In this document: positions 5,390 through 63,977 of the stretch, one piece after another | Numbering within the stretch: the first letter of the stretch is position 1 | Layout of the letters: the number at the start of each line of letters is the position of its first letter | Source of the DNA: Candidatus Spyradenecus sp. | GTDB lineage: Bacteria > Verrucomicrobiota > Kiritimatiellia > RFP12 > DVOR01 | Length of the DNA: 64,000 nt | NCBI GenBank assembly: GCA_045613865.1 | Contig: JAZLBT010000013.1 | Span: 26,846 to 90,845 of the forward strand | Reading direction: 5' to 3' | Position numbers and translations under genes: made by a program | Notes under the pieces: model-generated | The model's input: the letters and a program-made list of their open reading frames with translations, nothing else | The model's database searches: none | Told to the model about the DNA's origin: nothing

Positions 5390-5958
5390 AAAGACCTCAT
5401 CTCATAGAAGGAATAATAAACAAAATGAACACATCACCATATAATATACCATATATATTATAAAAAGAAAAGTAAGAATTAATAGCGAATGGAATATTGA
5501 ATATTGCACAATATAACCGCGGGGGTAAGAAGAGTACTTCTCAAAAGAAAGGATGTCAAAGAGGAAAGAAGAAGGATCATCAGCTTACGCCCCCGGGGGA
5601 CGGCGCGCCAAAATGAAAAATGTCAGCGAATCCGTTATAATGAAAGTTTCCAAACAAACCAAAATAAAGGACGCTGACATGGGCAATTATACCAAAAAAC
5701 GGGAGCATATTGACTACACAATGCGAAAAATTATTCAAAAACTTTGGAATTTTGATATTGATAGCCCAAAACACTGCTCAATCAAGTAACTTTCTGCTAT
5801 TTTGAGGATGCCGTATACAACGCATCGCGATGAAATTAAACAACACTCTACCACAATATCCCCATCAATAAAAATGTCGCCGCCAAGCGACATTTTCACT
5901 CTGTCACTAACCTTTATCTAATGCAAAATCAAACACGGAACGTTTGGCAATCAAACAT

Positions 5959-6050
5959 GGTGCGGTTTGAGCGTCATTCAGGTGCGGTTTGAACGTCGTT
6001 TAGGTGCGGTTTAAATGACACGTAAGTAAAGGTGCTTTAATCACGACATT
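5959..6050. repeat. Four tandem, progressively degenerate ~22-bp direct repeats (GGTGCGGTTTGARCGTCRTTYA). The last copy overlaps the 3' end of the 6037..7653 gene.
   Basis: Copies read directly: 5959-5980, 5981-6002, 6003-6024 and 6031-6050 (the last degenerate). Preceded by overlapping palindromes CAAAC-N7-GTTTG-N4-TCAAAC at about 5928-5956. Confidence 0.8.
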
Positions 6051-30537: not shown

Positions 30538-32583
30538 TTACAGCTTTCTACGAATACACTTTGTCGCGTTATCATATTCAAGCTGATATTTCTTGAGCCA
30601 TTCGGTCAAACGACTTGTCGCATAAGGGATTATTATCGCTTCAAGACGATTACGCTTAATCATTCCCTCAATGATTGTCGTTAAAAGAAACTTCTTATTT
30701 GTCTCTGAGAGCAATGAGGCCTCTTCAAAAACAAGACGCTTCATCTTTGTACACTTATCAAGGCAACCATCCAAAAATTCAACATTCATATTCATGATTT
30801 TTGTAGGCATCACAATCTCTTGCTCATCACTCTCATACTCGAAGAGATAGGCCGCCTTTTCTAAAATGCAAACCTTGGCGCCATCAACCTCTTCATAGGC
30901 CGCATTCCAATCGCGATCCCAGAAGCTTGGCAACTTCTTACCAAAGGCCGTACGCGGAATCAACCCACCCTCTGCGTTATACCAAACATCTGCAAGTTCA
31001 GTATCTCTAAACGCATTCCGTTCGTAGGTAATCGCAGTCGTATTCACATAGAGATTTTCAACCTTCATCCCCTTGAATGCTGTTGGTTTAACATTCAACG
31101 TATAACCTGCGATGTGCTGAATATAAATATCCGCATCCTTAGACGTACACTTCAAAAGGTGTAAACACTTTTCATCCGATGCATCAAGCTGCACGTCAAA
31201 AGACGACATCGGTTCATCAAGTTCAATCTGATGGGCAAGCAAGAATGAAGAAAGCGACTGAATAGGATTTGCAGGACGAACCTTCGGCACACTTTCCTTC
31301 TTTGATTTATCAATCAAAAGTGCTTGCATCACCTCAACAACCGCCTCACCAACATTCTCATCCGTTGCATTTGACAACGATGTGGTCGCAACAACTGATG
31401 TTGAGGTCTTCGCTTGCCGTCCAAAATAGGGGACATAACGGCCTTCTTCCGGCGAAGCAAGAGGTTTAAAGAGTGAAAGCGCCCACACGGCATAAAGAAG
31501 AATCGTCAACAAAAATGCACCCGCGCAAATAATACACTTTCGCACCAATGCACGCCAAGGCGTACGATAGCACGATTTCATTCGCATCAATGCGGTATGC
31601 AAATCACCCAATGTCCGATAACGATGCGTAGGATCTGAATCTAAACAGCAATGAAGAATCTTTTCCCACTTCTCATTCAACGGTGGCGTTGATGGCAAAA
31701 GAAATTCACCTGAGAAGATTTCACCCGTGAGCAATTGATACATCGTCACACCCAAGGCATAAAGATCCGTCTGCGGTGAAGGCGGCTCGCCCATACGCAA
31801 CTCAGGCGCCATGTAGTTAATCGTTCCCAACACAAGGTGATAGGCTTGACCATTCGTCTGCATACGCAAAGATAACGAACGATCCTGACCATTCATCATA
31901 CGCTTACGAAGCGAAGCATCGGCAACCTTTGCCACACCAAAATCTGCCACCATCGCATGCCCGTCAGGACGAATCAAAATGTTTGCAGGCTTAATATCAC
32001 GATGAATCACCCCGCTCCCATAATGGTGAGCATAATTCAAAGCCGCAGCAACGTCTGCCACAATTCGACGGACAAGCACTGGATGGATAAGACGATTTAT
32101 ACGATGACCATACGTCACCATGTCTTCAAGCGAAAGCGAAACACACCCACCACTAATCGTGGGCTCGGGAGTCTCGTCCCAACACTCCAAAGGATGTTCG
32201 CCAAATGCAGCATGGAGTAAAGCATTCTTGCGCTTACTCGACATTGCCACATAATCCATCACAAAGTAAAGCGTCTTTGTTGCGGCATCCTGCTCAAGGG
32301 TTTGCACCGAGACAATATTCTCATGACGCAACTGCGCAGTGATACGCGCTTCTTGCAAAAAGCGATCCGCACAATCCTGCCGTTCAATCTCCGTATCCCC
32401 CTGAACAAATAACGTCTTCAATGCAAAACGTTGATGAAGCATCGAATGCTCCACCTCATAAACCGCACCCATGCCACCAACACCAATTTTTCGCAATACG
32501 CGATAAGAGCCAAGCATCATCCCTGCGGTGAGCTCAACATGTTCGTGTAACTGATTAACATTGACGGTCGGTTCGTAACTCAA
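30538..32583 (-). CDS. Membrane-anchored Ser/Thr protein kinase with ~300-aa extracytoplasmic C-terminal domain.
   Basis: GVGGMGAVYEV, HRDIKPANILI, DFG and APE. Transmembrane helix AGAFLLTILLYAVWALSLF. Large C-terminal domain of unknown fold. Confidence 0.85.
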   Translation of the reverse strand: MSYEPTVNVNQLHEHVELTAGMMLGSYRVLRKIGVGGMGAVYEVEHSMLHQRFALKTLFVQGDTEIERQDCADRFLQEARITAQLRHENIVSVQTLEQDAATKTLYFVMDYVAMSSKRKNALLHAAFGEHPLECWDETPEPTISGGCVSLSLEDMVTYGHRINRLIHPVLVRRIVADVAAALNYAHHYGSGVIHRDIKPANILIRPDGHAMVADFGVAKVADASLRKRMMNGQDRSLSLRMQTNGQAYHLVLGTINYMAPELRMGEPPSPQTDLYALGVTMYQLLTGEIFSGEFLLPSTPPLNEKWEKILHCCLDSDPTHRYRTLGDLHTALMRMKSCYRTPWRALVRKCIICAGAFLLTILLYAVWALSLFKPLASPEEGRYVPYFGRQAKTSTSVVATTSLSNATDENVGEAVVEVMQALLIDKSKKESVPKVRPANPIQSLSSFLLAHQIELDEPMSSFDVQLDASDEKCLHLLKCTSKDADIYIQHIAGYTLNVKPTAFKGMKVENLYVNTTAITYERNAFRDTELADVWYNAEGGLIPRTAFGKKLPSFWDRDWNAAYEEVDGAKVCILEKAAYLFEYESDEQEIVMPTKIMNMNVEFLDGCLDKCTKMKRLVFEEASLLSETNKKFLLTTIIEGMIKRNRLEAIIIPYATSRLTEWLKKYQLEYDNATKCIRRKL

Positions 32584-36955: not shown

Positions 36956-37939
36956 ATGAAAAACTGGATGATGAGTCTTCTTCTCGTATGTCTTACCACT
37001 GCACTGCATGCAGCGGGAGCAAGTGATGTCGCCAAAAATATCTTTGGCAGTCGTGAGGCTGAGAAAAAGAACATTGAAAAGGGTGCAATCTTTATTGATG
37101 GCAACTTTATTCCTGCTCCTTATACACTCAAGCGTGAGGGCAACCTCATTCTTGTAAATGACAGGGTTGCTGCACGTTTCTTGGTTGATGACAAGGAAGA
37201 TGAGGCAGAAGGTGAAGATTCGCCCGAACTTCAAGATTCTGCCACACCCGCACGTCGTCAGTCTGCACGTGATGCTGAACAAGAGAAGCGTCTTAAGGCC
37301 GAAGAATTCCGCAAGAAGGGAATGAAGGGTGGCTCTCTCGCAGACAAGGCAAAGGCAAGAGAAAAAGCAAAGGCACCCAAGCCAAAGGCTGAATTCAATC
37401 GTGAAGCCTCTTCTTCGGGTGGTAATGGTCTCTTTGAAGAAGCCGATTATACTTATACCCCACCTTCCAAGCCTGAACCAAAGGCTGTTCCTTACATTCG
37501 CCCTGCAGCAAAGAAGTCGTTGAAGGAAATCGTTGCAGAACGTGATGCTATTGACGCAGCAAAGCGTGTCGATACCGCCGCTCTTGCTGCAGATGAAGCC
37601 TTTAAGGCCTTGGATGAAGAAGAAGTCGCACGTTATCGTAAGTCCTTGGATGCACGTTTAGCCAAAATTGAAGAAGCACTCCAAAAGGATGCTCTCGTCT
37701 TCTTCATTTCAACGAACATGAATATGAAGCTTGAAGGTCGCAAAACAATGTATAAGTTTGTTGCCAACTTTGAAAAGGATGCGAAGGGTAAGGCTGACGC
37801 ATTTGTAAAGGAATGGCCGGATCTTCCCAAGGCTTACTTAAAGCGCATCCACACCAATCGTTCGACAAATCTCAAGCAGATGAAGACCTTGATTGCGCGT
37901 GTCACGCGCGAATTAAAGGCTGCGAAGAAGGATGAGTAA
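36956..37939 (+). CDS. Secreted Lys/Ala/Glu-rich hypothetical protein, first gene of the Mla-like operon.
   Basis: Signal peptide MKNWMMSLLLVCLTTALHAAGA. Low-complexity charged protein. Stop lies 5 nt before the next gene. Confidence 0.5.
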   Translation: MKNWMMSLLLVCLTTALHAAGASDVAKNIFGSREAEKKNIEKGAIFIDGNFIPAPYTLKREGNLILVNDRVAARFLVDDKEDEAEGEDSPELQDSATPARRQSARDAEQEKRLKAEEFRKKGMKGGSLADKAKAREKAKAPKPKAEFNREASSSGGNGLFEEADYTYTPPSKPEPKAVPYIRPAAKKSLKEIVAERDAIDAAKRVDTAALAADEAFKALDEEEVARYRKSLDARLAKIEEALQKDALVFFISTNMNMKLEGRKTMYKFVANFEKDAKGKADAFVKEWPDLPKAYLKRIHTNRSTNLKQMKTLIARVTRELKAAKKDE

Positions 37940-41674: not shown

Positions 41675-41748
41675 GCGGGTGTAGCTCAATGGCAGAGCTC
41701 CAGCCTTCCAAGCTGGCTACGAGGGTTCGATTCCCTTCACCCGCTCCA
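41675..41748 (+). tRNA. tRNA-Gly (anticodon UCC).
   Basis: Cloverleaf folded by hand: acceptor GCGGGTG/CACCCGC, anticodon loop CTTCCAA, T-loop TTCGATT, CCA encoded. Confidence 0.85.
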
Positions 41749-41757
41749 TCCATTCCT

Positions 41758-41842
41758 GCCGGAGTGGTGAAATGGCAGACACAGCAGACTCAAAATCTGC
41801 CGCCCCTAAAGCGTGTGGGTTCGACTCCCACCTCCGGCACCA
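41758..41842 (+). tRNA. tRNA-Leu (anticodon CAA), with long variable arm.
   Basis: Acceptor GCCGGAG/CTCCGGC, anticodon loop CTCAAAA, long variable arm, T-loop TTCGACT, CCA encoded. Confidence 0.85.
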
Positions 41843-41866
41843 TTAATCCCTAGGATGGGGGAGTTC

Positions 41867-41943
41867 GGGCGGTTAACTCAGTTGGTTAGAGTTCCTGATT
41901 TACACTCAGGCTGTCGGTGGTTCGAGTCCGCCACCGCCCACCA
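41867..41943 (+). tRNA. tRNA-Val (anticodon UAC).
   Basis: Acceptor GGGCGGT/ACCGCCC, anticodon loop TTTACAC, T-loop TTCGAGT, CCA encoded. Confidence 0.85.
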
Positions 41944-42121: not shown

Positions 42122-43114
42122 ATGACAAAGACGAATATTCCAACAAATGAAACAATCAAACATTGTATTTCTATCCTCTCTGCAATTCGTACAGAAGTCA
42201 ATAAAACGCTTATCGGACAAGAGCGTCTTGTTAACGCGCTTCTTATTGCACTCTTAACTGGTGGACATATTTTGTTGGAAGGCGTTCCTGGTTTGGCCAA
42301 AACAACCGCAGTGCGAGCACTTGCCGCAGCATTGGGGCTTGATACAAAACGCATTTCTTTTACTCCAGACTTGCTCCCCGCGGATGTTATTGGTAATTTG
42401 ATTTACAATCAAAAAGATGGCACCTTTACGCCTCACAAAGGACCTGTTTTCTCTAACTTACTCATTGCCGACGAAATTAACCGTGCACCAGCCAAGGTTC
42501 AGTCTGCATTACTCGAAGCCATGCAAGAACGACAAGTCACGCTTGGCGATACGACTTATCAGCTTCCTAAGCCCTTCCTTGTTATGGCAACCCAAAACCC
42601 AATTGAACAAGAAGGCACCTACCCTTTGCCAGAAGCACAAACAGATCGTTTTATGTTAAAGTGTGTCGTTCGCCATCCCTCAATGGATGAAGAACGTCGC
42701 ATTATGGAACGTTTCACACAACCCGTTTTAGTAACGCCTGAATGCTGTGTTACGGCGGAGGAACTAAAGACTTTAACCACGGCAATTCAATCGGTTTACT
42801 GCGATAGTAAAATACAAGACTACATCCTTGCCATTGTATTTGCAACGCGTGAACCCGAAAAAACACCCGCATTAGTTTCTTTAAAGAATGCAATTGCCCT
42901 CGGGGCATCTCCTCGCGCATCCCTTTGTCTTAATCTTGCGGCACGTGCAAATGCGCTTCTTAAAGGTCGCGATTATGCTACACCACAAGACGTTAAAGAT
43001 GTCGCACACGAAGTCTTACGTCACCGCATTCTTCTCACCTATGAAGCAGAAGCAGAAGAACTCACAAGTGAAGAGGTCATCAACAAAATCCTTGACGAGA
43101 TTCCCGTTCCTTAA
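42122..43114 (+). CDS. MoxR-family AAA+ ATPase.
   Basis: Walker A GVPGLAKT, Walker B LIADEINRA, and a MoxR-specific C-terminal region. Confidence 0.85.
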   Translation: MTKTNIPTNETIKHCISILSAIRTEVNKTLIGQERLVNALLIALLTGGHILLEGVPGLAKTTAVRALAAALGLDTKRISFTPDLLPADVIGNLIYNQKDGTFTPHKGPVFSNLLIADEINRAPAKVQSALLEAMQERQVTLGDTTYQLPKPFLVMATQNPIEQEGTYPLPEAQTDRFMLKCVVRHPSMDEERRIMERFTQPVLVTPECCVTAEELKTLTTAIQSVYCDSKIQDYILAIVFATREPEKTPALVSLKNAIALGASPRASLCLNLAARANALLKGRDYATPQDVKDVAHEVLRHRILLTYEAEAEELTSEEVINKILDEIPVP

Positions 43115-43129
43115 GCGTAAAGTTTACCA

Positions 43130-44014
43130 ATGGCAATTGATACGACCGAATTAATGAAGGAAGTAGGACGCATTCGCATCCTCACGCGGCGTCTTCTTGA
43201 TGATCAACTCAGCGGTGATTATCATTCCGTATTCAAAGGTCAAGGTGTTGAATTTGATGAGTCGCGCCCTTATCAACCAGGCGATGACGTTCGCAAGATT
43301 GACTGGAATGTCACCGCACGTACAGGCATCCCTCACGTCAAACGATTTAATGAAGAGCGAGAATTAACAATTCTCTTTGTTGTAGACGTTTCAGGAAGCC
43401 ATAGTTTTGGTACTGGCGGCCACTCAAAAGCAATGCGTGCAGCAGAAATTACAGCACTTCTTGCAATGACTGCCTTACAAAACCAAGACAAGGTTGGGCT
43501 CGTTCTTTTTTCCGATAGGATTGTCAAGACTCTACCTCCAAGAAAAGGAAGAACTGCGGTACAGCGCTTGGTCCGCGAAGTGCTTGCGACGGAAGAAACA
43601 CGTGAAGGGACAAATATCAAAGAAGCGATTCGTTATCTCTCCGCAACACTTCACCGTAAGGCGATCATTTTCTTTGTTTCAGACTTCCGTGATCAAAACT
43701 TTGAACGAGAACTTACCGTGCTCGCTCGACGTCATGACGTAATTGCTTGCCGCATTTTTGATCCTGCAGAGAATCAACTCCCCAATGTCGGGCTTGTTGA
43801 ACTTCTTGATCCTGAAACACATCAAACTATTCTTGTTGACACCTCAAGTCGTTTTGTACGAGATTCCTTTGCAAAAGCTGAGACGGAACGTATTGAACGC
43901 CTTCATAAAACATTTCTCCGCATTGGTGCAGACGTACTTGACGTTTCCACCCAAGCCCCTTATATTAAGGATGTTCGCGACCTCTTTCGCCGTCGTGCTT
44001 TAAGGAGACATTAG
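43130..44014 (+). CDS. DUF58 (vWA-like) protein, MoxR partner.
   Basis: DUF58 pattern (…KGQGVEFDESRPYQPGDD…IDWN…) immediately downstream of moxR. Confidence 0.7.
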   Translation: MAIDTTELMKEVGRIRILTRRLLDDQLSGDYHSVFKGQGVEFDESRPYQPGDDVRKIDWNVTARTGIPHVKRFNEERELTILFVVDVSGSHSFGTGGHSKAMRAAEITALLAMTALQNQDKVGLVLFSDRIVKTLPPRKGRTAVQRLVREVLATEETREGTNIKEAIRYLSATLHRKAIIFFVSDFRDQNFERELTVLARRHDVIACRIFDPAENQLPNVGLVELLDPETHQTILVDTSSRFVRDSFAKAETERIERLHKTFLRIGADVLDVSTQAPYIKDVRDLFRRRALRRH

Positions 44015-46496: not shown

Positions 46497-46532
46497 AAAA
46501 GAAGAGGATAGGTAAATGCCTATCCTCTTTTT
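46495..46532. terminator. Bidirectional rho-independent terminator between convergent genes.
   Basis: 9-bp stem GAGGATAGG-TAAATG-CCTATCCTC, flanked by an A-run upstream and a T-run downstream. Confidence 0.7.
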
Positions 46533-46538
46533 ATACCA

Positions 46539-47531
46539 CTACTTCCTTGCACACGCAAGCATATGCGGCATTGGTGGTGGCACCGGCCCAATCATAAACT
46601 CCTTAAACCCTGCCTCCGCACACCATTGTGAAAGCTCAACATCCGAAAACACCCAACCATGTTCCGTTGTTAATGCCATATTCACAGCGAACAACGCAGA
46701 GAAGGTTGGTGTTGTATGATCCGCGCCTGTCATCATATCAAGAATATAAACACACCCGCCTACGCGTATCGCACGATAAGCCCGCTTAAGAATATCAACA
46801 ATCATCGCTGGTGACTCTTGATGCAAACAACCAAAAAGTGTTACTACATCATACATCTCTTCTGGCCATTGATCAACATGATAATCCCCTGCATGACATG
46901 TAATTTGACGAGCATGTGAAGCCGTCATTTCCGTTGCAATCGCAGATATTGCAGGCAAGTCATAAGTATCACACGTTAGCGTTTCATCCGCCTTTGCCAT
47001 CAATAGCGCATAAGCTCCAGGTCCACCTGCGAGGTCAAGCACTCGCGCGCCCTTCGGCAACTTTAAATGTGGCACTATTGCCTGCCCAATTGCCATTGCT
47101 CGACCATACATTGACAATGCGAAACGACGTGTTCGTTCTGCATCTTCACCCAAATGAATCTCTGGCTTTTCTACAGGTTTACCTGTCTGTACAAATTGTG
47201 TTAATTTTCCCCATGCTTGATATACATCTCGATTATACGCGATAGCACAAGTAAGGTCATGTGACGCCTGTTTAACTAACGTCAAGGCTGTTGCTGGTGT
47301 CAAAGCATAACGGCCATCGCTCTTCGTTAACAGACCAATGGAAACCGCAGCATCAAGCAATAACGTTATCCCACGTTGCGAACAGTGGCAATGAACCGCG
47401 AGTTTCTCTGCTGTTGGATCATCACACTCTTTGATCATCGTAAAAAGATCTAAATCAAGCGCAGAAAAAAGAACTGATGACCCGTAGAAGGCGCTCGCTA
47501 AATCAATAATTTGAGGAACCTGCAATTCCAT
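46539..47531 (-). CDS. Class I SAM-dependent O-methyltransferase (COMT/PF00891-like with N-terminal dimerisation domain).
   Basis: SAM motif VLDLAGGPGAYA plus the downstream acidic and catalytic His region. Start overlaps the upstream gene's stop by 1 nt. Confidence 0.7.
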   Translation of the reverse strand: MELQVPQIIDLASAFYGSSVLFSALDLDLFTMIKECDDPTAEKLAVHCHCSQRGITLLLDAAVSIGLLTKSDGRYALTPATALTLVKQASHDLTCAIAYNRDVYQAWGKLTQFVQTGKPVEKPEIHLGEDAERTRRFALSMYGRAMAIGQAIVPHLKLPKGARVLDLAGGPGAYALLMAKADETLTCDTYDLPAISAIATEMTASHARQITCHAGDYHVDQWPEEMYDVVTLFGCLHQESPAMIVDILKRAYRAIRVGGCVYILDMMTGADHTTPTFSALFAVNMALTTEHGWVFSDVELSQWCAEAGFKEFMIGPVPPPMPHMLACARK

Positions 47532-50500
47532 TAATACAACTTCTTTCCATAAATCATCATCTTACGCAAATGTAAGAAGGTTTTATTCGCACCCGTGCAA
47601 CGTACACGAACATATTGACCTTTCACAGGAGGGAATGTATACGTATAATCACGTTTGGCAGTAGCTTCCTCTACTACCGTTTGCCACTTCTTCCCATCCT
47701 CAGAAACTTCAACCACAAAAGGCACCAATCGCGCTATATTTCCCGTTGTATTCTTAAGGAAGACTCGCGAGACCTCAGAAGGTCCTGCCAATTCTACTTC
47801 TGCCCAAGGACCGACCTCTTCCCGTGTATGGAATGCATCCGTTTCAACCTTATCATCAATCACATGACGATAAGCAGATGGATGATCCCATTGAGACGTT
47901 GAAGAGATGCGAAGCAATCCATTCGCGGAACACAAATACCCCCACTGTTTTGCCTCTTCTTCATTAAACAATACAGCACGATCCACCGGTTTCAAACGAT
48001 CTTGCAAATCACAAAGAGACTGAAATGCCGCTATATTTTGCGCATTACTAGCGCCAATAATCGCATCCCTAACGTACTTGCCAAGCACATCTCCCGCACC
48101 ATCCTCCTTATCAAGTATTTCATTTAGTGCAGCGATATAACGCGAAGCATAATCTTTATCTTCAAGAAAGCGTCCGCTCCCCCAACGAATCACGCGTCCA
48201 AATGCATCTCTTGTTCCAAACTGTGCAGTTAATACTGCGTTAAATAAATCAAATACTTGAGACTTCCCAGAAAGACGTTTCTCATGATCATTAAGGATTC
48301 GCTCATAATCACAAAATTCCGCAGTTTCATGTTCTCCCTGCTTCATTAGTCGATGTAAATCTATAAGAATCTTTGCAACTTCTTCCTTCTTTAAAAGTTG
48401 CTCAATCGTTGGCAAAATTTCACGATGAATTAAATCCCATACTGGTTCAAGGTGATGTCCCATGCCCCTTGCGGTCAGCTTAGCAAAGCGCACCCACTCT
48501 GCACGCGCATCCTTAAACGTGCCACACTTCTTAAGATAGTTCGCATATGCTCGCCAAGTGTGGAGGTTTACGGGACAAAGTTTACCGCTCAAACGATAAA
48601 GTCCAAGAACCTTCTTATTCACCTTCTCAACAGGCTCAACCGAAACTTCAAGTCCTGCCCCATAATTAAAATTGAAATACCGCAATTCAAAACGATGTAC
48701 ACCCTTCTTCAATTTTAGCGTCTTTGACGTTCCACGCATCGCATGAACCCCATCCTCGCCTGCAACAGGTTTACCATCTATCCAAAGTCTTGCGCCATCA
48801 TCCGAGCGAACGTCCACCATTACCTCACCCGTCTGAGGCATCGTCAAAGTCCCCTTCCAAACATAACACACATAATCCTTTTGGACACGATTAATTGCAA
48901 AATTCTCAACAGCCTCCCACCTTCCAAGCACTTCAAGCAAGGCGAGGCTTTTCGGCAATTCCTTTCCTTGCCATGCATAAGCTACACACTTCATTGGAGA
49001 GAGTTTTGGCGTAGCCGTCAATTGACCGCGTAGAATCTCTGCCGTCCAAAGAGCTCGCATGGAATCACGATACTTAGAATGAGCAAACAACTCATTTTGT
49101 AAGTCCAACATAGAAAACGAATAAACGTTCTTCCACGGCAAGAAATGTGCACCTGTATACGGATTTACATTATAGTCAATTTCCCAACGTAACATCCGAG
49201 GTTGCCATAAGTTATACGCACAATGCGCAGGCTGTCCTCCTGTTGTTGCTGGTAATCCGTGTGCACGTGCAGCCATACAACCATAATGACTCAATGACCC
49301 ACACACACCTCCTATCTTGCGGGCCGTCTCATGACGTACATAAACATGATCCCATGGTCGATAATAAATCGGACCATGAATTGAATCACCAAAGAAATTA
49401 TGTACACGATATGCCGCAAACCAACACACCCCTGCATAATCACTTGGCGAAACATGATGTTGCTTTACAATCCATGCCATTGATGCCGCATCACCCTGAC
49501 TTGTTGCAAAAACAAAGCGCATTTGATCTACGCGTAAATCATCCATTCCCTTTATTAGCAACAACTCCTTACGCGTCTGCAATAATACTTGTAACGCATA
49601 GAAAACATCCGATGGATCTTCCTGTGCATTTAATGCAGCAGCAGTTGCCCATCGTAAATCAGCATCCGTCGGCATTGTTTCCTTAAATGAATGATAATAA
49701 ATCGCATCCAAAGCAAGTAATGCATTATCCCATGTTGTTGAAGGATCACCCGAGGCAAAAAAATCCTCCATCCATACTTGATTGTCAAAAAAAGCCTTTA
49801 AAAAAGATGCTCCACCTTCACGTGCAAGAATTTTTTCAAACGTGCTTTCTTTTAAAACGGTCCATGCATATCGCTTCACAATGGGGTCGCGGGGTTTTAT
49901 TTGATATGGTTTTAAATCCACCTTCTCTTCAAGAACCTCTCTCAAAGGCATCACCCGACGAATTGTAATTGCGCCCTCATTCTCCGTAGGATTCTCAACA
50001 TCGAGTATAAAATTCAACATTGGCCCTTCAAGAGTTGTCTCGAAAATAATATCCTTTCCCTCATGAAGGACAAGATCAACTGGCTTCTCAAACGAGGTTT
50101 CAAGAGAAAGACAGTTGCCCGTCAAAGAGACAAGCGACATTTTCCCCGAGCCCTTCGTTCGCTTAATATTGATTGCGTAACGCCCAGGACCTGATATATA
50201 ACGCTTTATCCCCGTTGACACCGTCCATTTATTCGTCCCAGTAGACACATGCTTTGCACGCCAACCATATGGAACAGCCACAGGCCCCTCACCCCACATA
50301 CATAGATAACCTAAAGCACCAGCTCCAAAATGCGTCTCCGTACCCATTGCCACGACCTGTTTCAGTACTTCTACACATGCCTCACGCTTTGCTGGCACAT
50401 CCTTATAAAGCACAAATGGCAACAATGCAATTGCTTGACGTTGATTTAATGTCAATTGTTCTTGCGGTTTTGCCTTAATCTCAGCAATTCGCGCCTCCCC

Positions 50501-51109
50501 CTCCTCAAACTTCTTTTCCGTTGCGAATTTTTGAATTTCATAACATACTCCATCCGTAGGGAAAAACGTAAGAGCAAAATGCCACCCACTCTTATCCTCA
50601 GGATCGAGCGCCTGTATTTTCTTTAAAATATCTCCTGTGAAAACAGGTGCTTTTGCACGCCACTCTCCCACATTCTCCTGCAACACACGATACATCTGCC
50701 CAAGAGAATCGACTGTATTTGTTGCGAGATAAGAATCAAAAAGCTTCTCTCGCATTCGCCCCTCTGCAATTGCAATCTTCAAATCTTCCTTCGTTGTTGT
50801 AGCAGACAATCCCTCAACAAGATAAACACAACGCCCAGCAGAATTAAAATACCCCACCGCTGGCAATCGTTCCACCGAAATCCGAAATTTATCTAACGTC
50901 GCATCTTTCTTCGTTCCCTTAGGTTGCACATCTGGCATATCCACAATTACTGTTGAAACACCTACTGTCTTTTGGAAATCTGCATCTTGCCACAAAGTTT
51001 GTACGTGAGGCGAAATTTGACACCAATCACTCCCCGTATAAAGCACTGCATGTTGCGCAAAAAGTGGAAGAGTGAAACAGCTCACCAAAAGTAAGAAAAA
51101 AATCTTCAT
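47531..51109 (-). CDS. Large secreted multidomain protein: transglutaminase-like cysteine-protease core + PA14 domain + C-terminal F5/8 discoidin domain.
   Basis: Signal peptide MKIFFLLLVSCFTLPLFA (start taken at 51109). Transglutaminase-like Cys/His core (GGVCGSLSHYG…RAHGLPATTGG…AHCAY). PA14 (VDVRSDDGARLWIDGKPV…RFELRYFNFNYGAGLEV). Discoidin-like C-terminus. Confidence 0.6.
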   Translation of the reverse strand: MKIFFLLLVSCFTLPLFAQHAVLYTGSDWCQISPHVQTLWQDADFQKTVGVSTVIVDMPDVQPKGTKKDATLDKFRISVERLPAVGYFNSAGRCVYLVEGLSATTTKEDLKIAIAEGRMREKLFDSYLATNTVDSLGQMYRVLQENVGEWRAKAPVFTGDILKKIQALDPEDKSGWHFALTFFPTDGVCYEIQKFATEKKFEEGEARIAEIKAKPQEQLTLNQRQAIALLPFVLYKDVPAKREACVEVLKQVVAMGTETHFGAGALGYLCMWGEGPVAVPYGWRAKHVSTGTNKWTVSTGIKRYISGPGRYAINIKRTKGSGKMSLVSLTGNCLSLETSFEKPVDLVLHEGKDIIFETTLEGPMLNFILDVENPTENEGAITIRRVMPLREVLEEKVDLKPYQIKPRDPIVKRYAWTVLKESTFEKILAREGGASFLKAFFDNQVWMEDFFASGDPSTTWDNALLALDAIYYHSFKETMPTDADLRWATAAALNAQEDPSDVFYALQVLLQTRKELLLIKGMDDLRVDQMRFVFATSQGDAASMAWIVKQHHVSPSDYAGVCWFAAYRVHNFFGDSIHGPIYYRPWDHVYVRHETARKIGGVCGSLSHYGCMAARAHGLPATTGGQPAHCAYNLWQPRMLRWEIDYNVNPYTGAHFLPWKNVYSFSMLDLQNELFAHSKYRDSMRALWTAEILRGQLTATPKLSPMKCVAYAWQGKELPKSLALLEVLGRWEAVENFAINRVQKDYVCYVWKGTLTMPQTGEVMVDVRSDDGARLWIDGKPVAGEDGVHAMRGTSKTLKLKKGVHRFELRYFNFNYGAGLEVSVEPVEKVNKKVLGLYRLSGKLCPVNLHTWRAYANYLKKCGTFKDARAEWVRFAKLTARGMGHHLEPVWDLIHREILPTIEQLLKKEEVAKILIDLHRLMKQGEHETAEFCDYERILNDHEKRLSGKSQVFDLFNAVLTAQFGTRDAFGRVIRWGSGRFLEDKDYASRYIAALNEILDKEDGAGDVLGKYVRDAIIGASNAQNIAAFQSLCDLQDRLKPVDRAVLFNEEEAKQWGYLCSANGLLRISSTSQWDHPSAYRHVIDDKVETDAFHTREEVGPWAEVELAGPSEVSRVFLKNTTGNIARLVPFVVEVSEDGKKWQTVVEEATAKRDYTYTFPPVKGQYVRVRCTGANKTFLHLRKMMIYGKKLY

Positions 51110-51113
51110 CCCA

Positions 51114-51959
51114 TTACTCCACATTAATACGGACTTGAACCTCATAATTACGAGACTTCAAATACGTGGTTGAGATACCGCTAATTGAGCGCACCTGGCG
51201 ACACGCAGCTAAAACTTCGTTATCATGTGTTGCGTTTCCCGATGATGACGCGAGGGAAATCGATGCAATCATACCAGGTGACCCACCCTTACGAAAAAGA
51301 ACCTTCACAACAGGCGCACGCCCCCCTACTGGCTCAATTCCAGCCTCTTGGCAACGACGTTTAAACTCTGCCTGAATAAGTCCTGCGACACGCGATGCTT
51401 CATTTGGTGGAATTTGATTCTTATTCCCAACCTTTGCACCTGCACCTAAGAGTTTTTGGACCTCTTCATCCGACAACTTTTTCTGCGTTGCAACCTTTGT
51501 TACATCCTTTTTACCTGTTGTGATTGGTCCCACACGCTTCCCAATTTGAATTTTGGGCTTCGGTTTATCTTTAGGCTTATTTACCGGTTTCGGCTTTTCC
51601 TTTGGAGGTTCAACCTTTTTCTCTTTTGGTTTCTCTTGAGGCGGCTTTGGAGGTTCAATTCGCACCTCTTCCACAGGATCAGGTAATGGAGGTGGCGGAG
51701 GAACAACCTCCTCAATTTTTGGCTCCGGTTTTGGCTCTGGTTCCGGTTCTGGTTCTGGCTCTACAATATCATTTGGCTCCTCCGCCAAGACATCTGCAGC
51801 ATTTTCCTCCATAACCACAAGAAACTCCATTGGAACAATCTTCTCCTCTGACGTTGAAGAACATCCATTTCCCGTTCCAATAAACAACCAAGCAAAAAGG
51901 AGGAAATTAATCCCCACAGACAAACCATAATATAGCTTATTATCTTTACTTTCCATCAT
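51114..51959 (-). CDS. tonB: TonB family energy-transducer protein.
   Basis: N-terminal TM anchor, (EP)n/(KP)n proline-rich spacer, and a C-terminal TonB domain pattern (…VVKVLFRKGGSPGMIASISLASSSGNATHDNEVLAACRQV…). Confidence 0.75.
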   Translation of the reverse strand: MMESKDNKLYYGLSVGINFLLFAWLFIGTGNGCSSTSEEKIVPMEFLVVMEENAADVLAEEPNDIVEPEPEPEPEPKPEPKIEEVVPPPPPLPDPVEEVRIEPPKPPQEKPKEKKVEPPKEKPKPVNKPKDKPKPKIQIGKRVGPITTGKKDVTKVATQKKLSDEEVQKLLGAGAKVGNKNQIPPNEASRVAGLIQAEFKRRCQEAGIEPVGGRAPVVKVLFRKGGSPGMIASISLASSSGNATHDNEVLAACRQVRSISGISTTYLKSRNYEVQVRINVE

Positions 51960-52291
51960 AGGACTATTATACCATGAATCTTTTCCAAATAAAATAGCTT
52001 TTTTTACTAGTAAAAGATGGGACTTATATTAGACGATCATACGCATTTGATATGTTAACATGATAAAAATATATTCCGTACGTCTTTCAAAAAAGCACCC
52101 TTTAATAGACAAAAAAATACACAACCTATTACATCTAAAATCTTCGCTAACAACCAATGAATCGTATACTTTTCTCTTCTTTTTATTCAAAAAAAAGAAA
52201 ATGGAGAAAGATTTGTAAAAATATTTCATCTAGAAGCCTCTTTTTTTTGGTAAAATAGATACCAAGTAAGCGATGGTACTGGAGCAGTATA

Positions 52292-56764: not shown

Positions 56765-56783
56765 TTGATTGAGTTTGGGAAGA

Positions 56784-58706
56784 TTAAAGATCGCCAAGAC
56801 CTTCAATCTCAACACCGCCTTCGTCCTGCACCTGGACCTTGACTTCTTCTTCAATCTTCGTCAAAGCACCCTTTGCAAGAGGCGAGTAGCGATAGTATGC
56901 CATCAACTGCAATGCGGTGAAGCAACCACCGAGCACACGGTTATCACCGTCGCCATCTTGGTTAATCCACGAGCTGTGCGAGGCCATGTCGACGTTGAGC
57001 AACTTCTCGACAGGGATGCCATTACGCTTACCATCCTTGGTTGCCTTATCCTTCATGAGACGATCCTTGTCGGACATCTTCTTGCCGCCAAAGGTGGTTG
57101 CACCTTCAGCAAGGCCCCAATAGGTAATATACTGCGGTTTACCGTTGTGATCTTTATAACCCGACTCTTCTGCAGGGATGTTAATCGCTGCAGCGGTGTA
57201 GAGACGCTGTTGCTTCACGTGCCAATCATTCCAAGCCTTAGACTTTTCACCCTGATTATAGCGCACCTGCGAGAGGTAATAGCAATAATACTGAGGCGAG
57301 TTACCCGCTTGCTTCTTTGCGCCAGAACCAGCGCCCGTCGGCATATGATCCTTTTCGAATGCAGGCTCCCACCCGTTCATATAAGTAAGCGCCTTTTTGC
57401 AGTCGGGGTGATCTGCCTGGTCAAGCATCTGAAGGATAAGTGCACAAGCCGCCGTCAAACCGGGATACTGATTCTTACGCGTATTCACATAACCGAAAGA
57501 GCCATCCTGATTCATCACTTGACGAATACCCTTTGTGGACTTCTTCAATGCTTCAACCACGCGATCCCTACCATCCGGTCCAGGCACATGAATCTTTGCA
57601 AGCTTTGCAGCCTTCAACGCCTGAACAGCCCAACTTGTGAAGGAGGAGTCTTCCTGGTCCTTGCCGGGATATTTCGGGAAGAAGTTGTAGTACCAACCAC
57701 CATTCGGCGTCTGACCATCCAAGATTGGAGGAAGTGCGAGAAGCACCGCCTGCTTCACTTCAGGAATATTGGTCATTGCATACGCTTCAGCGAGTGCATA
57801 CACGGCCACCATCTGGTCATAGTTCGTCTTACAGCGATGACGGAAGTAACCCACTTGGTCGTCACGCATGTCATGATAACCTTCAGGCTTGTTGCCACCC
57901 TTTTGCTTCTGACACTGACTCTTGTCGGTGATTTGATCCTTTAAGAGACCTTCGATTGCACGACGAACAACGTCATCGAATTCACCTGTTTCACTCATAC
58001 CCGGAACTTCACCGTGTGCGAGGAAGCAGAGAAGTGCAATTGCAGAAGTACCTGTGCTCTTATCCCAAAGACCCGTATTCTTGTCTTGACGCAACGCCAA
58101 GAAGCGCAAGAAGCCAACAACATACTGTTCCGAGCGAACACCTTTGAGGCTACCGAGCTTTTCACCACGCACACCAGGATTACGTGAGGTTGGCACGTTA
58201 ATCTTCACGAGCGAAGGAGTTTCAAGCACAGAGTCAAATGGTGCAGGTTGAGGCGACTGTTCGACAGAGGTCGTTGGCGGTGCTTCAATATCAATTTCCA
58301 CATCAACTTCAACAGGCTCTTCGAGCTCAGGCATCTCTTCCGGTGGTTCCGGCGGTTCTTCCTCGAGCTCTTCTGGCGGAACTTCTTCAATCACCTTGGT
58401 TTCAAACTTTGCCACCTTTTCTGGCGGTTGAAATTTGACCACAAGCATTGCGAGAATTGCGAGACCCACAATTGCAATAGCTGCGATAGGAGCACCCAAA
58501 CGTTGCAATTCAATCATTGCCTTTTTACGTTCGAGCGAATCCTTCGGTGCCTTAAAGCCCTTAATCATATCAATGATACGACGAAGATACGAGCGTTCCG
58601 TTTCTTCAAAGAGCTTCAGCAATTCGTCTTTATTATCGATATCTGCCATAACAACACCTCTTACATTGTCATGATGGCCAAGTTTGTCATGCCATATTTG
58701 CTGCAA
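56784..58706 (-). CDS. TonB-like N-terminal module (TM anchor + Glu/Pro-rich spacer) fused to a prenyltransferase/terpene-cyclase-like (alpha/alpha-toroid QW-repeat) domain. Last gene of the exbBD operon.
   Basis: Transmembrane helix IAAIAIVGLAILAMLVV, then the EEVPPEELEEEPPEPPEEMPELEEP spacer. C-terminal ~450 aa carry repeated QxxDG(S/G)(F/W) motifs (QTPNGGWYY, NQDGSFGY). The probable start is internal, near 58649. Confidence 0.5.
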   Translation of the reverse strand: MQQIWHDKLGHHDNVRGVVMADIDNKDELLKLFEETERSYLRRIIDMIKGFKAPKDSLERKKAMIELQRLGAPIAAIAIVGLAILAMLVVKFQPPEKVAKFETKVIEEVPPEELEEEPPEPPEEMPELEEPVEVDVEIDIEAPPTTSVEQSPQPAPFDSVLETPSLVKINVPTSRNPGVRGEKLGSLKGVRSEQYVVGFLRFLALRQDKNTGLWDKSTGTSAIALLCFLAHGEVPGMSETGEFDDVVRRAIEGLLKDQITDKSQCQKQKGGNKPEGYHDMRDDQVGYFRHRCKTNYDQMVAVYALAEAYAMTNIPEVKQAVLLALPPILDGQTPNGGWYYNFFPKYPGKDQEDSSFTSWAVQALKAAKLAKIHVPGPDGRDRVVEALKKSTKGIRQVMNQDGSFGYVNTRKNQYPGLTAACALILQMLDQADHPDCKKALTYMNGWEPAFEKDHMPTGAGSGAKKQAGNSPQYYCYYLSQVRYNQGEKSKAWNDWHVKQQRLYTAAAINIPAEESGYKDHNGKPQYITYWGLAEGATTFGGKKMSDKDRLMKDKATKDGKRNGIPVEKLLNVDMASHSSWINQDGDGDNRVLGGCFTALQLMAYYRYSPLAKGALTKIEEEVKVQVQDEGGVEIEGLGDL

Positions 58707-61343: not shown

Positions 61344-63977
61344 TTAGTTTGCGGTTGCCATAATTGCACGTACGCGCTGAGTGTAGGTGCCTTCGGGGAA
61401 GGTGTCGAGATAAGTCTGACCAATCGTCTTGATATCGGTTGCGAAGCTTGAGCGAGCGGTTGCATCCTTTTCATTATCCATACGATACTTTGCCAATTCC
61501 AAGTAGCCGAGATAAGCCTTTTGGATATAAGGCGAAACGCGAGGATCCTGTTCATTACCAACGAAACCTTCAACCATCATCGCACCGTCAAAGGCGTTCA
61601 TTGCAGAACCAGCAGAATCAAGACGTGTTTCCGAGCCTTCAGGTTCAGCCTCGAAGGTCTTCTGCGCCAATTGAGCCAAGGCGAGCTGAGTCTTTGCCGT
61701 CAATTCAGGATCAGCGATTTGCTTCGAGCCATCCGCATTCAAGGCAACCTTACCTGCAGCATCGCGAGCAACGTTGTTATTCTTAATGAAGGTTTCAGAC
61801 TTCTTTGCATTCGCGATAATCGCGTTACGTTCATCCAACGTTGTTGCATGACGCATTTCTGCAGCGGTGAGATCAATGATTAAGCAGTGTGCACCGAGTG
61901 CAAGCTTGGACTTGCCAAAGGTTGCAAGCATTTCATCTGCGCGCTTACGAGCAGCCGCGACGCTTGCCTTGTCCCCCTTCATCAAGAGCGCCTTGATGGC
62001 GAGTTCTGTACCTTCAAACTTCAATGTCTGAGAAAGATTCTTTGTTGCAAGAAGAGCTTGACATGCTTCAAGCGTCATGTCGGCATCCTTTGCTTCGAAG
62101 AGCTTCTTTGCTGCGTTCAAATACTGACTTGCAGTATATTGACCACCCGACTTGAACATTTCGCGATACTGACGCACCGATTCAGACTTCATACCCATCT
62201 GAGCGAGTGCATCTGCGAGCATCGGGATAGCATTCTGAGCTTCCGCGGAATTGGGGAACTTACGGCGCAAGGTATCCAATGTCTTCTGTGCATTTGCAAC
62301 GCCCTCTTCACCCTGAGTCGTCTGCAAGGTACCCATCTGGAGCAACACTGCAGGGGCGAACTTGCCATTGGGATATTCCTTGAGATAAGCTTCATAGAGA
62401 GCCAAGGTCTTTGCAGTAATCTTATCTGCAGCGGCCTTACCCTTTGCCGTTGCCGTCGAGGGCATCGTGCGTTGTGCGCAGAAGGCCGTCAAATACGTTG
62501 CGGCATCAGCCAAATCACGTCCCTTCTGACGTTCATCAGCGGCCGTAATATACTTACTTTCAGGCGCCTTCAAATCTGCAGCAAGCGCCTTAAAGACAGC
62601 TTCTGCAGCGGCATATGTCTTGCAAATTGTAGCATTCTTAGAACCATCGGTATCATCACGGCGGAGTTCTGTTGCCAATGCAACGAGTGCATTTGCCGTT
62701 TCGTGTTGCGCAACAGCGGCGTAATAACCAGGACGTGCAACGCCCTTGAAGTGATCAACAAGAGCCTTTGCTGCAGCCGTACGTTTCTTCGTATCTGCAC
62801 AAGGGCCCTTCTTGTAAGCTTCGAGAATCGAGAAGCGAGCAGACATACACAAATCGCGCTGCGATTCATCTGCCTTAATTTGTTCAATAATTGCTTCGAG
62901 ATCAGCAATTGCCTTTTCGATATCTTCCTTTGCCGTAGCCGTTTCAACAATGCTCTGAGCGCGCTTCAACTTACGTGCCAATGCGCCAGAGTGGTTGCCA
63001 TAATAACGGAAGAAGGCATTTTCCGATTCCTTCTGAAGATTCGTCAACTTCTTTTCTGCAAGGAAGTCTGCCAATTCACCCAATGCATTACCTGCTTGAG
63101 GTGCGAGCTTTTCATCCTTTGCAAAGGCTTCTGCGAAAGCATTGATGCGCTTGACAGCATCTTTATAACGATCTGCTGGAGCCATTTCCTTATTCGCGCT
63201 ATCAATATAGATGCTTGCCTTGATCATCTTCATCAAGGGGCCCATCATATCAAGTGTATAAGCGCCTTTTTCTGCATCGAGAATTGCCTGATAAGCGACC
63301 AATGCTTCATCAAACTTGTTCGAGTCAAAGAGCATATCCGCATTGATGAACTTCTGACGACGCACCTTTGCACGCGTTTCATCATTTGCTTTAACCGAAA
63401 TCTTCGTCGCGAACTGCTTATCAAGAATTTCCGTCACGCTATCAACAATCTTAATTGCGCCCTCAGCACTTTCCGATTCAGGATAGTTCATGAACACGTT
63501 CACGCAGTGGTGTAATGCACCCTGGTTGTTACGCTTCTTCGTCTTCGGATCGCGTTCACCTAAGAGATAGTCCAACACGAGTTTGCCGTTAGGATCATTC
63601 TTCGTCACCTTGCCACCAGCCTTAGCGATTTGTTCTTCAGCAAGGCGATAGAGCAAGCTACCGAGCAAGTAGCGGCACTTCGGCAACGGCGAAATACGCA
63701 ACAATGCGGGATCCTGTTCACGCAACTGTTCGTGAATCTTATTGAGCATTTCCAAGTAGTCGTCAATCAACAACTGAGCGCCCTTGACGTCGTTCTTCAA
63801 AATGCAAATGTGTGCTTTACCATTGATTGCATCACCGAAGTAAAGATCTTGCGACCAAAGCATTTCTTTGATCAACTTTTCGGCTTCAACAATGTTTGCA
63901 TCACGCTTCGCCTTATCGGTTGTGCGTTCGGCTTGTGCAAGCAAGGCGTTCAAATAATTTGCACGCATTGCCTTCAT
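61344..63977 (-). CDS. Large TPR-repeat protein. The N-terminus may lie beyond the window edge.
   Basis: Multiple Ala/Leu/Tyr-rich 34-residue-like repeats throughout. The track start at 63977 is the first Met, 23 nt from the window end. Confidence 0.5.
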   Translation of the reverse strand: MKAMRANYLNALLAQAERTTDKAKRDANIVEAEKLIKEMLWSQDLYFGDAINGKAHICILKNDVKGAQLLIDDYLEMLNKIHEQLREQDPALLRISPLPKCRYLLGSLLYRLAEEQIAKAGGKVTKNDPNGKLVLDYLLGERDPKTKKRNNQGALHHCVNVFMNYPESESAEGAIKIVDSVTEILDKQFATKISVKANDETRAKVRRQKFINADMLFDSNKFDEALVAYQAILDAEKGAYTLDMMGPLMKMIKASIYIDSANKEMAPADRYKDAVKRINAFAEAFAKDEKLAPQAGNALGELADFLAEKKLTNLQKESENAFFRYYGNHSGALARKLKRAQSIVETATAKEDIEKAIADLEAIIEQIKADESQRDLCMSARFSILEAYKKGPCADTKKRTAAAKALVDHFKGVARPGYYAAVAQHETANALVALATELRRDDTDGSKNATICKTYAAAEAVFKALAADLKAPESKYITAADERQKGRDLADAATYLTAFCAQRTMPSTATAKGKAAADKITAKTLALYEAYLKEYPNGKFAPAVLLQMGTLQTTQGEEGVANAQKTLDTLRRKFPNSAEAQNAIPMLADALAQMGMKSESVRQYREMFKSGGQYTASQYLNAAKKLFEAKDADMTLEACQALLATKNLSQTLKFEGTELAIKALLMKGDKASVAAARKRADEMLATFGKSKLALGAHCLIIDLTAAEMRHATTLDERNAIIANAKKSETFIKNNNVARDAAGKVALNADGSKQIADPELTAKTQLALAQLAQKTFEAEPEGSETRLDSAGSAMNAFDGAMMVEGFVGNEQDPRVSPYIQKAYLGYLELAKYRMDNEKDATARSSFATDIKTIGQTYLDTFPEGTYTQRVRAIMATAN

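Follow-up and report, generated by a model that had tools for sequence, protein, structure and literature searches.

A predicted three-gene operon of Candidatus Spyradenecus that joins a divergent TonB/TolA-family gene, a large exported discoidin protein with a putative Cys-His core, and a family-2 methyltransferase gene

What is the function of a locus that places a TonB-like gene, a very large secreted protein with a Cys-His motif, and a methyltransferase gene side by side? This arrangement is found at positions 46539-51959, on the minus strand, of a 64-kb stretch of DNA from Candidatus Spyradenecus sp. (64,000 nucleotides, here called the window). An initial annotation had read the three genes as a possible system for the processing and uptake of surface glycans or glycoproteins. 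The explanation favored here has about an even chance of being correct. In this explanation, the middle gene encodes an exported, lectin-guided thiol acyl-enzyme (a hydrolase or amidase) of the envelope or surface, and it is part of a native three-gene operon.

The locus is composed of three open reading frames (ORFs), all on the minus strand: gene 1 at 51114-51959 (281 amino acids), gene 2 at 47531-51145, and gene 3 at 46539-47531 (330 amino acids). Alignment with 19 homologues places the true start of gene 2 at Met13 of the ORF, position 51109, and a database protein of 1,192 amino acids (P0001) that is 100% identical to the product backs this start. Gene 2 is accordingly given as 47531-51109. 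With this start, the TAA of gene 1 is followed by tggg and the ATG of gene 2, which is the 4-nt gap described in the initial annotation. The overlap that it described between genes 2 and 3 is also present, as TAATG, in which the TAA of gene 2 and the ATG of the methyltransferase gene have one A in common (1-nt overlap). An intrinsic-terminator-like hairpin with an 11-bp stem and a T-run is located at 46502-46529 (minus strand), 10 bases past the gene 3 stop, and marks the end of the operon. Both flanking genes are on the opposite strand, a divergent DUF1846 gene upstream and a convergent 143-amino acid ORF downstream; the unit therefore consists of exactly three genes. The G+C content is 0.443 in the operon and 0.447 in the window, and the DNA is thus considered native. 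A genomic island or horizontal transfer was ruled out by the same composition. One protein encoded in the window belongs to a cluster (at least 90% identity) in which the named members are serine dehydratases from Kiritimatiellae metagenomes, so a gut or rumen Kiritimatiellia is the probable source. These sequence features argue for a real and native three-gene operon.

A candidate extended -10 promoter element, TGGTATAAT, was read directly from the sequence at 51966-51974 (minus strand). Its last T stands 7 nt before the ATG at 51959, and the long-form mRNA of gene 1 may therefore be leaderless. The consensus promoter scan did not list this element because a matching -35 element is absent.

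The full cassette of TonB-like gene, big gene (the gene 2 family), and O-methyltransferase gene is found with short gaps in four relatives (L090, L091, L092, and L007). The big protein of L090 is 80% identical to that of the window and its O-methyltransferase 85%; in L091, L092, and L007, the values are about 50% and 76%. Within the cassette, conservation is thus much higher for the O-methyltransferase, at 76-85% identity, whereas the big protein stands at 50-80% and the TonB-like protein of L007 at 63%. Since the cassette is kept in these four relatives, the concern that the operon might be conserved in no relative falls away. An interim view that the O-methyltransferase linkage is not conserved, based on L007 being its only occurrence among the loci from GTDB genomes, was overturned by the closest metagenomic relatives. 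A fifth locus, L093, has the pair of TonB-like and big genes, and its contig ends past the big gene.

The pair has a wider distribution. Among 80 GTDB loci found from the big protein, 12 have a TonB-like gene directly upstream on the same strand (L001-L007, L009, L013, L018, L022, and L033). These are the closest full-length relatives of the big protein and carry Kiritimatiellia and Lentisphaeraceae labels. Gaps of 1 to 64 nt are seen, and the two genes remain neighbors over a range of big-protein identity that extends from 80% to about 40%. When the search starts from the TonB-like protein, a big-family gene follows on three of seven long contigs. A subclade thus keeps the whole operon and a wider clade keeps the pair, and adjacency is strictly required by neither partner.

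The distribution also bears on the possibility that the three genes are functionally unrelated, being the inherited gene order of one lineage with incidental co-transcription. This is doubtful, though it deserves serious weight. Over the 80 loci, there is no widely conserved neighbor of the big gene, and no neighbor family exceeds 7 loci; loci without the pair have unrelated, clade-specific housekeeping neighbors such as QueC, HprK, UxaC, and TsaD. The O-methyltransferase is linked only in the subclade where big proteins are at least 50% identical, and it is cytoplasmic, whereas the other two products are envelope proteins. Against a purely incidental order, the cassette is kept in L091, L092, and L007 although both flanks differ from those of the window. 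Intergenic distances are tight or overlapping, and the pair is retained in metagenome-assembled genomes (MAGs) labeled as different classes of the Planctomycetes-Verrucomicrobia-Chlamydiae (PVC) group.

The preferred reading of a lectin-guided thiol enzyme depends on gene 2, which encodes an exported multidomain protein of 1,192 amino acids. The AlphaFold model of the full-length protein has a mean predicted local distance difference test (pLDDT) score of 85.3 and a predicted template modeling (pTM) score of 0.81. Residues 1-19 (51053-51109, minus strand) form a predicted Sec signal peptide, MKIFFLLLVSCFTLPLFAQ, recognized from the hydrophobic N-terminus and from the A-Q-Q-AVLYTGSDW junction in homologues. 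The mature N-terminus QxAVLYTGSDW is conserved after this peptide, which agrees with the secretion proposed in the initial annotation. A lipoprotein reading (LVSC, residues 8-11) was rejected, as homologues do not have the Cys and share the A-Q-Q junction of signal peptidase I type.

Further domains lie on both sides of the core of this protein. A thioredoxin-like alpha/beta domain is predicted from the order of secondary structure elements in the model at residues 20-100 (50810-51052, minus strand). Some family members match Thioredoxin_7 at 6e-8; the domain is probably non-redox because its Cys is not conserved. Residues 101-404 (49898-50809, minus strand) are an accessory region, modeled as a helical domain (107-271) followed by a beta-sandwich (291-385), and are absent in shorter family members. 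The N-terminal 400 residues are optional, and many relatives align from about residue 405 onward. After the core, a PA14 domain occupies residues 706-826 (48632-48994, minus strand), with a match to PF07691 at E 5.4e-13 (49.4 bits, cut-off 24) and a profile match to the PA14 protein 6qdi at E 1.2e-8. It is an insertion between the core and the next helical domain; about half of the close family lacks it, and 17 of 53 diverse members have it. A helical repeat domain, for which relatives give weak TPR/HAT matches, is modeled at residues 832-1039 (47993-48616, minus strand). In L087, the start of the TonB-like gene, which lies upstream of a big-family gene, is overlapped by a separate 225-amino acid Thioredoxin_7/DsbH-like gene (5327-6004). 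The latter echoes the thioredoxin-like domain that is fused N-terminally in the window protein.

The C-terminus, residues 1065-1192 (47534-47917, minus strand), is a discoidin domain of the F5/8 type C, CBM32-like kind. PF00754 is matched at E 6.2e-12 (46.2 bits, cut-off 28.2) and F5_F8_type_C_2 (PF22633) at E 3.5e-13 (50.4 bits, cut-off 27.8). Foldseek aligns the domain with CBM32s and F-type lectins, including the SpX-3 fucose-binding module and the lectin domain of lectinolysin, at target template modeling (TM) scores of 0.74-0.79. It is found in 46 of the 53 diverse family members. The PA14 and C-terminal discoidin domains are the only Pfam families above cut-off in gene 2, and both had been named in the initial annotation. 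The unit conserved across the family is a core of roughly 300 residues, the helical domain, and the C-terminal discoidin domain. The lineage of the window adds the N-terminal thioredoxin-like/helical/beta-sandwich module and the inserted PA14. Elsewhere in the window, a GH31 glycosidase of 1,082 amino acids with C-terminal F5/8 type C and NPCBM domains (2141-5389, minus strand) is a second lectin-armed glycan enzyme.

The conserved family core is located at residues 405-700 (49010-49897, minus strand) and has two parts, first an all-alpha subdomain and then an alpha/beta subdomain that is transglutaminase-like, as indicated by a model of the core and by Foldseek. Foldseek searches of the whole protein against the PDB returned mostly CBM32, PA14, and long helical proteins (BIRC6) and were uninformative about the core. 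The core was therefore modeled alone with a deeper alignment. This model, built with 43 sequences, has a pLDDT of 94.1 and a pTM of 0.92. Ten helices are followed by helix 199-211 of the model, whose first residue is Cys603, and then by three strands; His629 opens the second of them and Asp645 closes the third. The motif GVCGSLSHYG...RAHGLPATTGG...AHC, from which the initial annotation proposed its Cys-His core, is present at residues 601-630.

Several residues of this region are strongly conserved. All 153 family domains have Cys603 (codon 49301-49303, minus strand), the candidate nucleophile at the N-terminus of its helix, and His629 (codon 49223-49225, minus strand), with which strand 225-232 begins. 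Pro627 and Gly618 are equally invariant; Ser607 and Trp642 are each found in 152, Cys630 in 150, and Cys562 in 128 of them. A highly conserved loop, YRxxNxFGDSIHG (in longer form YRxxNxFGDSIHGxxYYxPW), neighbors the invariant residues. In the window's model, Asp645 (codon 49175-49177, minus strand) is the last residue of strand 237-241 and occupies the third catalytic position that is canonical for the fold. The window subclade is among the few lineages with Asp at 645, a residue shared by 9 of the 153 domains, and the classical triad is therefore not a feature of the family. D/E575 (134 of 153 domains) and S/N/D at 647 are candidate substitutes for the Asp.

The weak Foldseek matches of the core are almost all transglutaminase-like proteins. 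The top match is 3isr, a putative cysteine protease, with E 0.075, probability 0.97, and a TM score of 0.28-0.30 over roughly 150 columns. It is followed by TG2, mouse and yeast peptide:N-glycanase (PNGase; probability 0.75-0.80), TG3, and factor XIIIa, with arylamine N-acetyltransferases, TglA, XPC, and protein 4.2 among further matches, all of which share one fold. Transglut_core is the commonest sub-threshold Pfam match, in 5 of 43 core sequences (best E 0.0054) and in 4 of 19 members, and in the window protein it spans residues 596-621, over the Cys region of the model. No Pfam or NCBIfam model covers the core at its curated threshold, in the window protein or in family members. A search of the core profile against PDB sequences gave no relative (best E 1.5, spurious). 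The transglutaminase/PNGase-like core of the initial annotation is retained as a fold resemblance with an invariant Cys and His, and it stays below every curated threshold. On the model, the core most resembles the transglutaminase-like (papain-like) fold, as a very divergent member with a Cys-His pair that is putatively catalytic.

Comparison with known families shows what is shared and what is distinct. As in the PF01841 family and 3isr of Cytophaga hutchinsonii, a helix of the core opens with the candidate nucleophile Cys (GVCG) and appears to pack on a small antiparallel sheet, and the strand after this helix starts with His. The local pattern GVC...A..hG.P is similar to that of genuine DUF3857-Transglut_core proteins (L082 and L009). 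In contrast to PF01841, the core gives no significant sequence or profile match and has the canonical Asp in few members. Its own invariants are the YRxxNxFGDSIHGxxYYxPW loop, Q/E626-Pro627, and Cys630 beside the His. The fold follows an all-alpha subdomain of 160 residues, and in nearly every member a helical domain and a discoidin domain are fused to the core.

PNGase is a cytosolic enzyme whose Cys-His-Asp triad is conserved and which has a CxxC module that binds zinc. Like eukaryotic PNGase/Png1 (2f4m, 2f4o, 1x3w, and 3esw), the gene 2 protein would pair a Cys-His core of transglutaminase fold with a distinct beta-sandwich domain for carbohydrate binding. Unlike PNGase, the window core has no CxxC in residues 405-705 by direct reading and no conserved Asp, and core alignments with PNGase are weak (TM below 0.2, root-mean-square deviation above 10 Å). 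The likeness is confined to fold and architecture. PNGase is a plausible functional analogy, as an amidase that acts on glycoconjugates.

The core family is uncurated and restricted to the PVC group; it would be a variant of the known transglutaminase-like fold and has a characteristic lectin architecture. Among 1.84 billion cluster representatives, residues 405-705 retrieve 337 at E≤1e-3 and 220 at the stricter E≤1e-10, and 253 relatives are found in GTDB species genomes. Nearly all are gut or rumen MAGs of Kiritimatiellia, Lentisphaerae (Ca. Spyradenecus), Thermoguttaceae, and Opitutales. Databases name the family only "discoidin domain-containing protein", and literature searches for the domain combination of gene 2 found no description of it.

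A non-catalytic role for the big protein is unlikely. In that case, it would be a glycan-binding adhesin or scaffold with PA14 and discoidin as its functional parts, and the core would be catalytically lost, as in XPC/Rad4 or protein 4.2, or would hold a structural-metal site (Cys603/His629/Cys630/Cys562). Two lectin-type domains, the absence of the canonical Asp in most members together with a conserved Cys/His cluster, and the dead fold members XPC and protein 4.2 among the Foldseek matches are consistent with such a role. However, the invariance of Cys603, His629, Pro627, Gly618, and Ser607 over 153 divergent domains is typical of an active site, and the conservation of the neighboring YRxxNxFGDSIHG loop is active-site-like. 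Moreover, half of the family dispenses with PA14.

Several features of gene 1 (51114-51959, minus strand) place its 281-amino acid product in the TonB/TolA family. The membrane-anchor motif SVGINFLLFAWLFIGT (Ser-x3-Asn-x6-Leu-x3-Thr; 51873-51920, minus strand) was located by orthologue alignment, and the pattern [S/A]-x3-N-x6-L-x3-[S/T] is found in 13 of 13 aligned orthologues, within a hydrophobic N-terminal helix that follows basic residues. In this variant of the SHLS motif, which PMC12215075 defines for TonB and TolA, Asn stands where His would be. Asn is reported as a substitute for His20 of E. coli TonB in the title of Swayne and Postle (2011), as cited in PMC8928145. A proline-rich spacer at residues 61-135 (51555-51779, minus strand), read directly from the translation, begins with EP repeats and continues with KP repeats (EPEPEPEPKPEPK ... 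KPKEKKVEPPKEKPKPVNKPKDKPKP). The conserved C-terminal region (51117-51551, minus strand), with an SSGN..HD..VL..C motif, includes a TolA/TonB-like domain, recognized by alignment, a TolA match, and sub-threshold TonB_2 and TIGR01352 matches.

The C-terminal domain is connected to known proteins by profiles. As a single sequence, gene 1 matched no solved TonB, and it scores 15.1 bits against PF13103 (TonB_2; cut-off 22) and 14.9 bits against TIGR01352 (cut-off 27.1), each at E about 0.025. A profile of 12 orthologues matches the C-terminal domains of TolA (6s3w/1lr0) at E 3e-4. In a large protein collection, a profile search returned 127 relatives and reached genuine TolA and Serratia TonB (E 8e-6). 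Some of the 127 have precomputed PF13103 or PF03544 assignments, and the name "energy transducer TonB [Kiritimatiellia bacterium]" is attached to some. Gene 1 is thus best described as a divergent TonB/TolA-family protein. The family assignment of the initial annotation stands on the profiles, spacer, and anchor; its label "canonical TonB" does not, as the curated models stay below their cut-offs. The predicted layout is an inner-membrane anchor, a periplasm-spanning proline-rich spacer, and a TolA/TonB-like C-terminal domain.

Compared with TonB-ExbBD and TolAQR of E. coli, gene 1 has a predicted N-in single membrane helix in the Ser-x3-(His)-x6-Leu-x3-Ser register, the EP/KP spacer of TonB, and a C-terminal domain of roughly 90 residues that profile searches tie to TolA and TonB. 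It differs in the Asn that replaces an essential His, in a C-terminal domain under the PF13103 and TIGR01352 thresholds, and in its surroundings, where genes for ExbBD/TolQR, Pal/TolB, and a TonB-dependent transporter (TBDT) were not found. None of ExbB/ExbD, TolQR, or a TBDT is among the scanned ORFs of the window; the uptake system proposed in the initial annotation is therefore not supported.

The N-terminus of gene 1 has two alternative readings. The NCBI gene call P0191 (238 amino acids) begins at Met44 and leaves out the anchor helix (51832-51959, minus strand). The long ORF is the better reading because the Met44 position is Val in several orthologues and the upstream anchor motif is kept in all. 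A conserved GGC directly past the helix could be a lipobox, with the helix then serving as a cleaved signal peptide.

Two side observations concern the TonB-like family. In L083 (7001-7828) and L001 (9145-9918), two independent MAG assemblies, the big gene is directly preceded by a chimeric gene. Over its first 99 nt, the chimera matches the 5' end of the big gene (signal peptide and about 33 residues) at 97% identity. The remainder, a proline-rich spacer and a TonB-like C-terminal domain, is 73% identical to the anchored TonB-like gene one position upstream. As predicted from its sequence, the chimera would encode a secreted, unanchored protein with the TonB C-terminal domain. In L082 (2100-5888) and L009 (4262-8068), large DUF3857-Transglut_core proteins of about 1,265 amino acids, each followed by TsaD, are encoded just upstream of the TonB-like gene. 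In these two loci, the TonB family thus has a second neighbor that is a genuine transglutaminase-like gene.

A more ambitious integration of the three genes has a slim chance of being correct. In it, the TonB-family protein with its Asn-type anchor would dock or energize a lectin-guided Cys-His dyad enzyme, forming a new envelope system of PVC gut bacteria with a TBDT-independent Ton role, and the O-methyltransferase would act on the small-molecule product. The enzyme core, on a transglutaminase-like scaffold, would then represent a new catalytic family that dispenses with the Asp and has YRxxNxFGDSIHG as its active-site loop.

It is very unlikely that the TonB-like protein is a dedicated energizer through which the proton-motive force drives the big protein's export, release, or conformational activation at the outer membrane. 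The conserved spacing (1-64 nt) suggests translational coupling, adjacency is kept over the same 80% to about 40% range of big-protein identity, and the anchor motif implies docking to a motor of ExbBD/TolQR type. A precedent is described in PMC6434023, in which the Myxococcus protease PopC is secreted via Oar in a TonB-system-dependent manner. Nevertheless, the TonB-like gene stands beside unrelated genes on four of the seven sampled contigs, many big-protein homologues have no TonB-like neighbor, neither a TBDT nor ExbBD was found in the window, and a TonB box was not identified.

Gene 3 (46539-47531, minus strand) encodes a predicted cytoplasmic S-adenosylmethionine (SAM)-dependent O-methyltransferase of family 2 with 330 amino acids, assigned from Pfam and from solved relatives. 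Methyltransf_2 (PF00891) is matched at E 5.5e-22 (78.6 bits, cut-off 22.3) and the O-methyltransferase dimerization domain (PF08100) at E 5.1e-14 (52.3 bits, cut-off 25.6). The SAM motif VLDLAGGPG is present, and a signal peptide is absent. The best solved relatives, all matched over the full length, are the DsyB/MTHB methyltransferase (7wdq, E 8e-28), RedM, and ASMT. In full-length similarity, dimerization domain, and SAM motif, gene 3 resembles family-2 enzymes such as the DsyB/MTHB S-methyltransferase, RedM, ASMT, and plant COMT, and it is not of the catechol O-methyltransferase (Methyltransf_3) type. It is far under every NCBIfam equivalog cut-off; none was reached, and the best was FlxJ at 45.9 bits (cut-off 560). 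Gene 3 is thus predicted to be a family-2 small-molecule methyltransferase, which agrees with the COMT-type enzyme of the initial annotation.

Domain composition, conservation, and gene order are shown; the catalysis, substrate, localization, and physical coupling of the favored explanation are inferred. The core of gene 2 would act via a thiol acyl-enzyme intermediate, and cross-linking is less likely for it than a hydrolase or amidase activity of protease-like or PNGase-like kind. The lectin domains would hold the enzyme on a glycoconjugate, either a host or dietary glycoprotein or polysaccharide or a glycan of the cell's own envelope, and contact would be made in the periplasm or at the cell surface. 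Most likely, the TonB-like protein is the general TonB-type transducer of the cell or a tether. Its adjacency to gene 2 would reflect co-expression or envelope docking of the enzyme and not a dedicated uptake machine. Gene 3 would be a cytoplasmic small-molecule methyltransferase that is co-inherited with the pair in a subclade. Nothing in the locus contradicts current understanding.

Several results weigh against the lectin-guided thiol enzyme. The canonical Asp is missing from 144 of the 153 domains, where its column holds mostly Ala (56) or Gly (41). Foldseek of the core model against the PDB gives nothing at E≤1e-3. The scans for PA14, F5_F8_type_C, and Methyltransf_2 pass their cut-offs, but Transglut_core, the remaining domain of the initial annotation, reaches E 0.11 in the window core (13.2 bits, cut-off 23). 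An hhalign comparison of the core with the Transglut_core regions of L082 and L009, with a template of two sequences only, gives a probability below 1%. Cys603, His629, and Cys630, with the frequent Cys562, could form a metal site. A TonB-like gene without a big-family neighbor is found on the other four of the seven long contigs, and in one Spyradenecus MAG the TonB-like and big genes are on different contigs (L025 and L086). The link to the methyltransferase is real as inheritance, and nothing ties it mechanistically to the other two genes.

Highly improbable is a true transglutaminase or acyltransferase that modifies envelope or surface proteins or glycans (e.g., in S-layer or capsule anchoring) with the TonB-like protein as its partner: TG2, TG3, FXIIIa, TglA, and arylamine N-acetyltransferases, which are transferases and not hydrolases, are among the structural matches, but there is no significant similarity to any characterized transglutaminase, bacterial members of the PF01841 fold are in general mostly predicted peptidases or amidases, and genes for acceptor or donor substrates were not found nearby.

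Members of Kiritimatiellia, Lentisphaerae, and gut Planctomycetes occur in abundance in the gut and rumen and are hardly represented in culture; a specialization on complex host and dietary glycans is assumed. The present analysis defines a protein family of these bacteria whose conserved core has no Pfam or NCBIfam model. If the Cys-His pair is catalytic, the lectin-guided enzyme would be a new type of glycan-targeted thiol enzyme and a candidate for glycoprotein or glycoconjugate processing in these bacteria, and its recurrent pairing with a TonB-family protein would offer a handle on enzyme placement in the PVC cell envelope. If the pair is non-catalytic, gene 2 would be an ordinary lectin-type surface protein beside a housekeeping TonB.

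The rest of the window has further features. Three genes for eukaryotic-type Ser/Thr protein kinases lie within 12 kb, at 20665-23097, 29118-30518, and 30538-32583 (minus strand). Long ORFs (327-877 amino acids) without a Pfam match at E≤1e-3 or 1e-4 are located at 6037-7653, 16390-17925, 27964-29085, 36956-37939, 56784-58706, and 61344-63977. The ORF at 56784-58706 (minus strand) overlaps a 391-amino acid ORF on the opposite strand (56769-57944); one member of this overlapping pair is therefore unlikely to be a gene. A cluster of tRNA-Gly(TCC), tRNA-Leu(CAA), and tRNA-Val(TAC) is located at 41675-41943 (plus strand), upstream of a MoxR-DUF58 pair at 42122-44014.

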